The position numbers were made by a program, and so were the translations under genes. A stretch of 64,000 nt of DNA, taken from NCBI GenBank assembly GCA_937924335.1, contig CALDWW010000066.1, positions 1,317 through 65,316 of the forward strand, given 5' to 3'. The DNA comes from an uncultured Gammaproteobacteria bacterium. Its GTDB lineage: Bacteria > Pseudomonadota > Gammaproteobacteria > Steroidobacterales > XN24. Positions 1,104 through 2,990 of this stretch are shown in pieces; position 1 is the first letter of the stretch, and every line of letters begins with the position of its first letter. The notes beneath the pieces are model-generated. The model saw nothing but the letters and a program-made list of their open reading frames with translations. It was not told the DNA's origin and did no database searches.

Positions 1104-2990
1104 CTAGTTGTTCGTAGTCGGAGTGTCCGTTTGCTCCGCGGACGGCACCAGCGAATCGTCTTCTGATTCGTCCTGCGGGCGGACTTCGTATAGCCGCGCG
1201 AGAGCGAACTTGGTCCCGTCCTCTTCCACCGATGTGACCTGCCAGGCGAGATCCAGCTCCGGGAAATCTTCTCCCGGGGCGTCGGAGAACATCAGTTCCT
1301 TGATCAGGGTCCAGGGGGCATTCGACAGTTCTTCCTTGGTCAGGAGCCTGGTAGACCCGGTATTGTCACGGAAGATCAGAGTCGGATAGTAGACCAGGAA
1401 GTAGCGGATATCCGGCCGCTCGGCCAGGACCTTGTGCAGCGGGGACTCGATCAGCTCGTCCAGCTCCCGGATCTTGTCTGAATGCTGGGGCGTGAGCAGG
1501 AAGTTGTTGGCGATCACCGAGCATTCGGTGTGGAACCGAACGTAGTGCCCGGAGTCATTGTAGGTAAGCACCACGCCCGGGCGTTCTCTGCACCGTCGGC
1601 TCAGTTCCGGCATCGTATCCTTCACCAGCTGGTACTGTGAATCCAGGCCGGCCCGATACTCGGCGAAGAGTCGGTTCCGTACCGCAGGATAGAGCGTCGA
1701 TATGAACAGCAGCAGGGTGACGCCGATGACCAGATTCGACCGCCGCGGGTAGCGGCTGGCCAGCCGGGACGCACCGACCAGGATCGGCAGGTACAGCGCG
1801 AACGATCCGTAATAGTGAAATCGGAACTGCTGGACGAGCAGCAGCAACCCCAGCGTGGAGAAGACGAAGAACACGATGCGATCCGGCGCCTTGCTGCGAA
1901 GCGCGGCGATGGCGGTACCGGCCATAATCACCGGGACCGCGAATACCATCAGGCTATAGACACTCCTCAGGAAATAGGGCCCGTCGGGGTCCCGGAACAT
2001 CCTGACGATGCTCTTCGCCTCACTGATATCCGACAGCCGGCTCACCCGGTGGGCGAAGAAGTCACCGGCCACCAGGATCTGGCTGATGATCGGCACCACC
2101 AGCACGAGGCCGAGGACGATCAGCAGTCCGAGGTCGCGTAGCGAGAAGGTGCGCCGCGCCATCCACAGGATGACGGCGCTGGAACAGACTGCGATGTAGA
2201 CGTGGAACCAGGACAGCAGGTAGAAATCGAAGCGTCCCTGGATAAACGCTGTGGATGGGATCGTCACCAGCAGCGTTCCCGTCACTAGGCTGCCCGCCAT
2301 CCAGACGCTCGATCGCCAATCCGGCTGGATACCGCGGATCCAGCACACGAAGAACGAGGCCAGCACCGGGATCTGCAGCACGAACAGGGCGTTGTGGAAC
2401 CCGCTGGCGATTCCCAGCGAGAAACCGGTGAGCGCGGCGAAAGCCCTGGATTGATCGTCTTTGAACCAGTTGATGCTCGCGGCCAGCGTCAGCAATACGA
2501 ACGTGTACTCCATGAAGTGATGATCGACGCGGCCAACCCCGTGCAGCACCTGGTTCAGGGGCAATAGCGCCGCGTAGAGCGCGGCCATGATGCGGAATGG
2601 CCACGGGAGCTTGAGCGCAGCGCTGACGACCAGGACCAGCCCGACCGTGACGTAGGCCCAGAACACCGGTATGTAGACCAGCACGGCCATCGGGTTCTCG
2701 GCCCCGGTCACAGCCACCAGGGCCGTTAGCGTCCGCGCCATGAGATAGTCATACAGCCACGGCCAGGCGATCCAGCTGCCCTCCGGCACATGGATGCGGG
2801 GATCGAACTCGAAGAAGGCATCGGCTGACTGGAAGGTATCGAGAATCCGGCGGGCGTGATAGAAGGAGTCATTGCCCGCCGGCAGATACTCCGCGCCGGT
2901 GAACGAGGCGCTGGCCCAGTTCATCGCCATGAACACCCCGATCGTGCCGATCAACAACCAGGCGAGAGTGTTCTTGAAAGCGTCGGTCAT
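1104..2990 (-). CDS. polytopic GT-C-fold glycosyltransferase, STT3/AglB-like (degenerate WWDYG motif)
   Basis: ORF 1104..3110. The likely start is the ATG at 2990 (MTDAFKNTLAWLLIG), which overlaps the upstream gene's TGA as ATGA. About a dozen hydrophobic segments are followed by a soluble C-terminal domain of roughly 150 aa. Motifs read: GNDSFYHARR, FDPRIHVPEG, GRVDHHF, DISE, VLTYNDSGHYVRF..VIANNF. Confidence 0.75.
   Translation of the reverse strand: MTDAFKNTLAWLLIGTIGVFMAMNWASASFTGAEYLPAGNDSFYHARRILDTFQSADAFFEFDPRIHVPEGSWIAWPWLYDYLMARTLTALVAVTGAENPMAVLVYIPVFWAYVTVGLVLVVSAALKLPWPFRIMAALYAALLPLNQVLHGVGRVDHHFMEYTFVLLTLAASINWFKDDQSRAFAALTGFSLGIASGFHNALFVLQIPVLASFFVCWIRGIQPDWRSSVWMAGSLVTGTLLVTIPSTAFIQGRFDFYLLSWFHVYIAVCSSAVILWMARRTFSLRDLGLLIVLGLVLVVPIISQILVAGDFFAHRVSRLSDISEAKSIVRMFRDPDGPYFLRSVYSLMVFAVPVIMAGTAIAALRSKAPDRIVFFVFSTLGLLLLVQQFRFHYYGSFALYLPILVGASRLASRYPRRSNLVIGVTLLLFISTLYPAVRNRLFAEYRAGLDSQYQLVKDTMPELSRRCRERPGVVLTYNDSGHYVRFHTECSVIANNFLLTPQHSDKIRELDELIESPLHKVLAERPDIRYFLVYYPTLIFRDNTGSTRLLTKEELSNAPWTLIKELMFSDAPGEDFPELDLAWQVTSVEEDGTKFALARLYEVRPQDESEDDSLVPSAEQTDTPTTNN

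Follow-up and report, generated by a model that had tools for sequence, protein, structure and literature searches.

The window analysed here is a 64,000-nucleotide stretch of gammaproteobacterial DNA. On its minus strand, at 1104..2990, it encodes a 628-aa membrane glycosyltransferase of the GT-C class (the GT-C protein), which we assign to the STT3 superfamily, archaeal-AglB type, on the strength of profile matches and a predicted structure. The catalytic motifs of AglB are retained throughout a large family of relatives, and both tryptophans of the WWDYG motif are missing throughout the same family. The explanation that we favour, with a probability of about one half, is that the GT-C protein would be the catalytically intact, AglB-type periplasmic transferase of a three-component system, placing a single sugar on a protein acceptor that is not defined by N-x-S/T. 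For the family, this acceptor would most likely be the pilin.

Family assignment and catalytic residues

The sole NCBIfam match of the GT-C protein was TIGR04154 (archaeo_STT3; 'oligosaccharyl transferase, archaeosortase A system-associated'; E = 1.1e-21, residues 17-401), with a score of 76.9 bits that did not reach the curated cut-off of 450. We observed the same match in all 40 sequences of an alignment of diverse relatives, none of which matched a further NCBIfam family. Pfam STT3 (PF02516) gave no match in the GT-C protein or in the 40 relatives, even at E <= 10, and a phmmer search of PDB sequences with the single GT-C sequence returned nothing meaningful. The first matches of the 40-sequence profile among PDB sequences were the C-terminal globular domains of Archaeoglobus fulgidus AglB-S2 and AglB-S1 (3vu0 and 3vgp; E = 0.03 and 0.12), which are marginal taken alone.

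An AlphaFold2 model built on this alignment reached a pLDDT of 88.5 and a pTM of 0.89. The model consisted of ~13 transmembrane (TM) helices and a C-terminal periplasmic alpha/beta domain of ~165 aa. It showed the features of a GT66-type fold: besides the ~13 TM helices, external loops 1 and 5 (EL1 and EL5) are long and the C-terminal domain is extracytoplasmic. In a Foldseek comparison with the PDB, ranks 1-19 were all AglB, STT3 or PglB. A. fulgidus AglB was the top match (7e9s; E = 4e-14, query TM-score (TMq) 0.75), and human and yeast STT3 gave E values of 1e-13 to 1e-10 (TMq 0.62-0.71), PglB about 1e-8 (best 7e-9; TMq 0.54-0.57) and DPY19 about 1e-7 (down to 4e-8; TMq 0.61-0.65). Other GT-C enzymes scored far lower: AftB (E = 5e-4, TMq 0.44), ArnT (E = 5e-4, TMq 0.32), PMT (1.6e-3 or weaker), Emb (0.028 or weaker) and ALG (weaker), the last three with lower TMq. 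An ArnT-, PMT- or Emb-type identity was ruled out by these far weaker scores together with the absence of Pfam and NCBIfam matches to such families.

A preliminary description of this DNA had proposed STT3/AglB homology from motifs. The NCBIfam match, the predicted structure and the identity of the motifs bear this out, the resemblance being well beyond chance. When STT3 was set against other GT-C families by profile hidden Markov model (HMM) and by structure, the best match was to AglB/STT3 and none was obtained to ArnT, PMT or Emb by HMM; because HMM and Foldseek both favour AglB/STT3, the best match does not fall outside the STT3 family. We also aligned the family profile with human STT3A by hhalign (sequence checked against 6s7o). 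The probability of this alignment was 0.2-0.3%, a point against the reading that we favour, and it served for residue register only, not as evidence of homology. Overall, sequence profiles and the modelled fold support the window protein as a bacterial member of the STT3 superfamily, of the archaeal-AglB type.

The minus-strand open reading frame (ORF) spans 1104..3110 when read from a TTG (668 aa) and 1104..2990 when read from an ATG (628 aa). We take the ATG at 2990 as the likely start, since it overlaps the stop codon of an upstream methyltransferase gene (ATGA) and homologues begin at about the same position. We use the 628-aa numbering, in which D81, D196/H198, E364 and D519, counted earlier from 3110, become D41, D156/H158, E324 and D479. 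The peptides quoted in the preliminary description (PAGNDSFYHARRI, FEFDPRIHVPEGSWIAWPWLYDYL, GRVDHHFMEY, LSDISEAKS and VVLTYNDSGHYVRFHTECSVIANNF) were all found in the translation of the ORF.

We assessed conservation of individual residues in 76 full-length relatives taken from species-level genomes. The published motifs of A. fulgidus AglB (AfAglB) for the metal and the acceptor read Gly-Asn-Asp47, Asp161-His-His163 and T-I-A-Glu360 (PMC8342417). The first of these strings recurs as G39-N40-D41 (2868..2876, codons checked), the predicted first DXD motif, in which D41 would be the EL1 metal ligand and the amide-activating Asp; F43-Y44-H45-x-R47-R48 follows it. The assignment of D41 rests on the G-N-D identity, because hhalign placed the EL1 Asp with a 4-residue offset in a gapped stretch. 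A second conserved EL1 block, D63..H67-x-P-E-G-S..W76-P-W78-x-Y-D81 (2748..2804), consists of invariant or near-invariant columns and has a putative functional role. The second DXD-type motif is D156-H157-H158..E161 (2508..2525), all four residues of which are invariant. Its D-H-H string is the same as Asp161-His-His163 of AfAglB, in keeping with the earlier reading of GRVDHHFMEY as the D-x-H motif, and hhalign placed D156/H158 over D167/E169 of STT3A (low probability).

LSDISEAKS had likewise been likened to the TIxE/SVSE motif. D321-I322-S323-E324 (2019..2030, EL5) aligned with S-V-S-E351 of human STT3A, with E324 over E351 (hhalign, low probability). E324 was invariant, residue 322 was I, V or M in 74 of the 76 relatives, and the consensus is x-I-x-E. 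R390 (1821..1823), invariant in the 40-sequence alignment, fell over the Arg of the STT3A V-R-L-M segment (hhalign, low probability); from what is known of oligosaccharyltransferases (OSTs), it is a candidate phosphate-binding Arg. The residues invariant in all 76 relatives were D41, H45, R48, D156, H157, H158, E161, E324 and C490. These data suggest that the catalytic centre of the GT-C protein is AglB-like and intact.

The family is large. Among 1.84 billion representative proteins we counted 340 clusters (50% identity) at E <= 1e-30, 1047 at E <= 1e-10 and 1921 at E <= 1e-3. Identities within the family fall to ~30%. In species-representative genomes the hosts were almost only Woeseiaceae, Steroidobacteraceae and unclassified Gammaproteobacteria metagenome-assembled genomes, and the family is also present in cultured strains such as Peristeroidobacter soli JW-3, P. 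agariperforans KA5-B and Lentisalinibacter sediminis C23. The closest relative of the window protein is encoded in CP070833 (83% identity). We found no homologue on plasmids and no compositional sign of recent transfer, the GC content being even across the region and like its surroundings. Some JGI entries carry the automatic label 'Stt3' and NCBI entries are labelled hypothetical. We found no description of this GT-C family in the literature searched; the 'new glycosyltransferase family' reported in PMC10584680 is a different one, of YfhO-like proteins.

A conserved block at the WWDYG position

In all characterised OSTs, WWDYG and the DK/MI motif form the Ser/Thr pocket that reads the +2 Ser/Thr (PMC8342417). 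The corresponding stretch of the GT-C protein is Y477-N478-D479-S480-G481, whose codons we checked at 1548..1562, in agreement with the preliminary description. The register proposed there was reproduced by two independent alignments. In the AglB-S profile search, N-D-x-G-H-Y lay over W-W-D-Y-G-N-W and ANNF over CNNF; in the hhalign comparison (low probability), Y477-N-D-S-G481 lay over W525-W526-D527-Y528-G529 of STT3A and ANNF over DNNT.

We observed no Trp at the WW positions in any of the 76 genome-derived relatives, in any clade, and the 40 aligned sequences were alike in this. The D479 column was not conserved (37 D, 23 N and 16 others). G481, kept in 75 of 76, was the sole conserved residue of the WWDYG-aligned stretch. 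In place of the motif the family has a block of its own, which in the window protein reads G-H-Y-V-R-F-H-T-E-C-S-V-I-A-N-N-F-L-L-T (1491..1550) and whose A-N-N-F is the CNNF of AglB-S and the DNNT of STT3. Across the family the consensus x-x-[D/N]-x-G-H-Y-[IV]-R-[YF]-H-T-x-C-S-V-I-A-N-N-F is strongly conserved. The D-x-x-K segment of STT3A fell over a gap of the family profile and the segment aligned with AglB-S had no conserved Lys, both alignments being of low confidence here.

The earlier wording, a 'degraded' WWDYG, does not describe this pattern, as both Trp are missing family-wide and a conserved block stands instead. Because the Trp loss is family-wide and the replacement block is conserved, local decay can be dismissed. 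The idea that the protein is a non-functional relic of a transferred archaeal aglB could draw on the loss of the defining motif and on the blindness of Pfam STT3 to the protein. It is at odds with the 340 clusters, with invariant catalytic residues and a conserved replacement motif despite identities down to ~30%, and with an intact ORF whose start overlaps the upstream stop and whose GC content is like that of its surroundings. This conservation pattern effectively refutes the relic reading. Judged from the alignments, this is a conserved AglB-type lineage without a recognisable Ser/Thr pocket and with what appears to be a stable alternative acceptor-side architecture. An altered acceptor specificity of the GT-C protein would fit the data.

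In AfAglB, the first-motif Asp, the xIxE Glu and the strand around it serve to activate the amide of Asn and to hold the backbone of the peptide by hydrogen bonds (PMC8342417). By analogy, the retained D41, E324 and x-I-x-E strand would be compatible with a sequon-independent glycosylation of Asn.

Two metagenomic contigs carry stand-alone ORFs of 131-147 aa that comprise the AglB C-terminal core domain alone (L082 717-1112 and L083 1417-1812; P0121 and P0122). These ORFs begin at or just before WWDYG and have no TM domain in the same gene.

Donor genes, the type IV pilus locus and candidate acceptors

Two genes lie directly upstream of the GT-C gene on the same strand. The first (2987..3847) encodes a class I S-adenosylmethionine (SAM)-dependent methyltransferase (Pfam Methyltransf_11, E = 1.5e-13) whose true start is probably downstream of the GTG at 3847. 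The second (3955..4938) encodes a GT2 polyprenyl-phosphate hexosyltransferase of the AglJ/GtrB/DPM1 type (Pfam Glycos_transf_2) with two C-terminal TM helices. Its best curated match was AglJ TIGR04182, the archaeal dolichyl-phosphate hexosyltransferase (E = 6.4e-60, below the cut-off). No convincing promoter or terminator was seen inside the window cluster.

We surveyed the neighbourhoods of 77 species loci by tblastn with seed proteins from annotated contigs; 40 of these loci span at least 15 kb. A GT2 of the same type (58-87% identity) was found within 5 kb of the GT-C gene in 38 of the 77 loci, a GtrA-family flippase in 30 and a methyltransferase within 5 kb in 19. CP070833 keeps GT2 and GT-C only. 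In locus L060 (8056-9993, plus strand), a single 645-aa protein directly upstream of the GT-C gene fuses a GT2 domain to a SAM methyltransferase and thereby supports the placement of GT2 and methyltransferase in one pathway. A second type of island carries an ArnC-like GT2 (E = 1e-55) in place of the AglJ-like one, along with RmlA/RmlB-, DegT- and acetyltransferase-type genes. Because both island types carry genes for polyprenyl-monophosphate monosaccharide synthases, the donor implied is a polyprenyl-phosphate monosaccharide and not an oligosaccharide. From its gene content, the cluster looks like a three-component system feeding an undecaprenyl phosphate (Und-P)-linked monosaccharide to the GT-C protein. 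The gene had been noted as an unusual find among housekeeping genes. It is part of a conserved GT2-(GtrA)-methyltransferase-GT-C module tied to the type IV pilus region.

Other membrane proteins accompany these modules. In Woeseiaceae-type islands, a polytopic membrane protein of ~633 aa adjoins the GT-C gene (L002 11898-13799, plus strand; also L007-L011, L016, L030 and L059). A divergently encoded membrane protein of ~520 aa adjoins it in others (L003 6355-7917, minus strand; also L019, L024, L028, L032, L039, L043 and L066) and occurs in islands with RmlA/RmlB-, DegT-, acetyltransferase- and ArnC-like genes. Neither protein has a detectable relation to GT-C; the former is without a Pfam or NCBIfam match and the latter without a family match. 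In Azospirillum doebereinerae (L084 4321-7448), a GT2 ~70% identical to the window GT2 and a GtrA stand beside an unrelated 541-aa membrane protein without a family match. This protein, which has no detectable relation to GT-C, may by analogy be another uncharacterised periplasmic glycosyltransferase using the same donor module.

The window carries a complete type IVa pilus core locus, pilS-pilR-pilA-pilB-pilC-pilD-coaE-zapD, at 14320-23765. On the plus strand, the pilS-pilR two-component system (14320..17358; pilS 14320-16014, Pfam 6TM_PilS and HATPase; pilR 16018-17358, Sigma54_activat and Response_reg) is followed by pilA (17588..18028), which encodes the 146-aa type IV major pilin PilA (Pilin and N_methyl), and by pilB-pilC-pilD (18282..22265; T2SSE, T2SSF and Peptidase_A24). 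coaE and zapD (CoaE and ZapD) lie after pilD, up to 23765.

In the survey, we found a pil gene no further than 11 kb from the GT-C gene in 29 of the 77 loci; among the 40 loci that span at least 15 kb, the figure was 19. In 19 loci, pilA was within 4 kb. In the window the distance from the island to pilA is 14.6 kb, and we estimate that a random gene would lie this near the pilus locus in well under 1% of cases. The recurrent backbone was nadE-sucCD-pilS-pilR-[GT2-GtrA-MT-...-GT-C]-pilA-pilB-pilC-pilD-coaE-zapD, where MT is the methyltransferase gene. Besides lying upstream of pilA in the same orientation, the island was found to run divergently from pilA, with pilR-pilS on its other flank (L064 and L068), to lie a few kb downstream of zapD (Woeseiaceae) or to adjoin clpB, and the pil-linked loci were spread over several clades of a neighbour-joining tree. 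Because the arrangements of the island vary, we argue for a functional tie between GT-C and pili, and the counts are still inflated by shared ancestry. As far as gene order can indicate, the likeliest acceptor for the family is the type IV major pilin, because in many species the pilus locus houses the island, which often separates pilR from pilA. Tandem major-pilin gene pairs follow the GT-C gene in L014, L034, L039, L045, L055 and L056; they are variably diverged, and identical in L055.

The combination of GT2, GtrA and GT-C is the architecture of known three-component systems that modify glycans, and this counts for an unlikely alternative in which the GT-C protein would modify a glycan or lipid (lipid A, lipopolysaccharide core, O-antigen or capsule) in the manner of GtrABC, ArnC/ArnT or LgmAB, the pilus site being a neutral insertion hot spot. 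Some islands do contain ArnC-like GT2 and ArnB-like aminotransferase genes, but the fold and motifs of the GT-C protein are those of the protein-modifying AglB and STT3 and not of ArnT (TMq 0.32), and we saw neither O-antigen nor lipid A genes in the flanks surveyed. The very strong conservation of the acceptor-side block would suit an invariant acceptor. The kept xIxE points the other way, as in AfAglB this motif hydrogen-bonds the backbone of the acceptor peptide (PMC8342417). Many family members lie away from pil genes, and set against them is the island's repeated position exactly between pilR and pilA, in several orientations.

In pilins encoded beside the island we counted 39 N-x-S/T sequons where shuffles predict 53, and sequons were absent altogether from 10 of the 29. 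An enrichment of sequons was thus rejected, which argues against canonical N-glycosylation and fits the missing Ser/Thr pocket. A canonical PglB- or AglB-like OST, glycosylating N-x-S/T from a lipid-pyrophosphate-linked oligosaccharide, would agree with the superfamily membership and the conserved catalytic residues, and the window PilA has 5 sequons in its 114-residue globular part where 2.1 are expected (p about 0.03). This reading is nevertheless very improbable: WWDYG is absent family-wide and no DK/MI is evident, the island-adjacent pilins are depleted in sequons, and the nearby genes are polyprenyl-monophosphate monosaccharide synthases, with no pgl-like oligosaccharide assembly genes among them. 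The island-adjacent pilins have long Ser/Thr/Ala/Gly-rich disulfide loops.

An intact catalytic centre with a missing Ser/Thr pocket would also be expected of a general periplasmic protein glycosyltransferase that follows a new, non-N-x-S/T rule on many targets, the pilin being at most one of them. Acinetobacter is reported to possess a pilin-specific OST alongside a general one, a precedent for such an enzyme. No pilA adjoins the window copy, its closest relative or the stand-alone copies; against this, the strong enrichment at the pilus locus speaks for a target of its own in at least a large part of the family, and conservation singles out no other candidate target gene in the neighbourhood. 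Downstream of the GT-C gene, a partial gene (3-800, minus strand) that is cut off at the window start encodes a secreted acidic protein with the signal peptide MTVSRMTKSKPLSLGGAALVMTLAATGVHA... We rejected this protein as a dedicated acceptor, as it has no homologue in any related locus and no Pfam match. We consider a general transferase to be a possible but rather improbable explanation.

Several observations weigh against the pilin-transferase reading. In the window, the island lies beyond nadE-bamD-rluD-pgeF-clpB, with pil genes starting at a distance of 11.3 kb and pilA 14.6 kb away, GtrA has no match anywhere in the 64 kb, and the C-terminal disulfide loop (D-loop) of PilA is unusually short compared with island-adjacent pilins. 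In CP070833 the module is apart from pilA, and there is no pil gene in the 10 kb around it. Among the 40 loci that span at least 15 kb, 15 lack both pil genes and clpB in their vicinity, and in five such loci the neighbours that we scanned were unrelated; the acceptor is therefore not always encoded nearby. The pilus linkage could in part be synteny inherited within two related families and not a sign of function. The GT2 family is very large in bacteria (at least 8000 matches, with ~70% identity in Azospirillum and Skermanella) and also partners unrelated membrane proteins, so it tells of the donor and not of the acceptor or of an archaeal ancestry. For the window copy, given the distance to pilA, the pilin would be the leading but less secure candidate acceptor.

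On the reading that we favour, the adjacent AglJ/GtrB-type GT2 would load a hexose onto Und-P at the cytoplasmic face of the membrane, and the product of the overlapping methyltransferase gene would modify the lipid-borne sugar. A GtrA-type flippase, encoded in the clusters of relatives and not in the window, would then take the lipid-linked sugar to the periplasm. There, the GT-C protein would pass the single sugar to a periplasmic protein by the metal-dependent AglB mechanism, with an acceptor not chosen through N-x-S/T. The linkage would be to a sequon-free Asn, or to Ser, Thr or another residue.

Ahead of the pilus locus lie clpB-pgeF-rluD-bamD-nadE-sucCD (5080-14141). secA (25105-27828) and an ftsI-type penicillin-binding protein gene (44675-46408), both on the minus strand, are ordinary housekeeping context. 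The run of minus-strand ORFs around the latter may be the dcw cell-division/cell-wall cluster.

Significance and comparison with known systems

Lipid-linked N-glycosylation in bacteria is regarded as limited to delta- and epsilonproteobacteria (PMC4973528), and the present family would extend the STT3 superfamily to Gammaproteobacteria. It would constitute a natural experiment in which the AglB catalytic centre is intact and the sequon pocket has been swapped for a different, equally conserved motif. What is new here is the family-wide loss of the motif together with a conserved alternative, the catalytic strings identical to those of AfAglB, the Und-P-monosaccharide module and the tie to the pilus locus, from which the function is predicted. 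Taken together, these data suggest a hitherto undescribed way of glycosylating pili. If the acceptor is the pilin, this would be a new route to variation of the pilus surface, which matters for phage evasion and adhesion. If Asn is glycosylated without a sequon, or if simple Und-P-monosaccharide donors are used, the enzymes would be of interest to glycoengineers. The question is directly testable because cultured carriers exist.

We also offer a broader and more doubtful scenario. An archaeal AglB-type lineage may have been acquired by Gammaproteobacteria of sediment and soil (Woeseiaceae, Steroidobacteraceae and relatives) and have turned into a sequon-independent pilin transferase of single, often methylated or amino-modified Und-P sugars. 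If true, pilin glycosylation would have a third, hitherto undescribed class of enzyme, and the STT3 family its first natural member that works without the WWDYG/DK pocket; the bond formed might still be Asn-linked.

Among pilin-modifying enzymes, TfpO/PilO and TfpW of Pseudomonas aeruginosa are likewise polytopic membrane enzymes encoded beside pilA, within a variable cassette of pilin and accessory genes. TfpO is an O-antigen-ligase-type OST, whereas the family described here is of the AglB type. TfpW, a GT-C enzyme, has 11 TM helices, a DDX motif and a TPR domain at its C-terminus; its gene lies downstream of pilA, and it uses polyprenyl-phosphate-D-Araf (bioRxiv 10.1101/2020.04.19.049825). 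We rejected a relationship with TfpW on the architecture as published, by description: the present GT-C protein has ~13 TM helices, GND and DHH motifs and an alpha/beta C-terminus, and is encoded upstream of pilA in relatives.

The architecture of a GT2 polyprenyl-phosphate sugar synthase, a GtrA-family flippase and a GT-C protein is shared with GtrA/GtrB/GtrC, ArnC/ArnT and LgmA/LgmB. Unlike in those systems, the GT-C protein here comes from the STT3/AglB clade and not from GtrC, ArnT or PMT_2, and the window cluster is without GtrA. The DPY19 C-mannosyltransferases also combine an STT3-like fold with the absence of WWDYG, and have been solved with Dol25-P-Man, a polyprenyl-monophosphate monosaccharide donor (PDB entry description). 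In contrast to the window protein, they are eukaryotic; we detected no sequence-level relation to them, and the GND, DHH and xIxE motifs of the GT-C protein are those of AglB.

The PglB proteins of Campylobacter and Desulfovibrio share the superfamily, the fold and the character of a periplasmic single-subunit enzyme. They are structurally more distant from the GT-C protein than AglB and STT3 are, and have WWDYG, the MI motif, an undecaprenyl-pyrophosphate-linked oligosaccharide (Und-PP-oligosaccharide) donor and a pgl assembly cluster. Archaeal AglB (A. fulgidus AglB-S1/S2, 3vgp and 3vu0; AglB-L, 3waj, 5gmy and 7e9s) is the best structural match and the subject of the sole curated HMM match. 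The Gly-Asn-Asp, Asp-His-His and x-I-x-Glu strings of AfAglB are identical in the GT-C protein. At 162 and 164 residues, the PDB chains of the AglB-S C-terminal domain are similar in size to the C-terminal domain of the GT-C protein, and [AC]-N-N-F is common to both. The lipid-linked donor of AfAglB has a single phosphate (PMC8342417), which matches the donor predicted for the window protein. The GT-C protein differs from archaeal AglB in having no WWDYG and no evident DK/MI, in its gammaproteobacterial host and in its putative monosaccharide donor.

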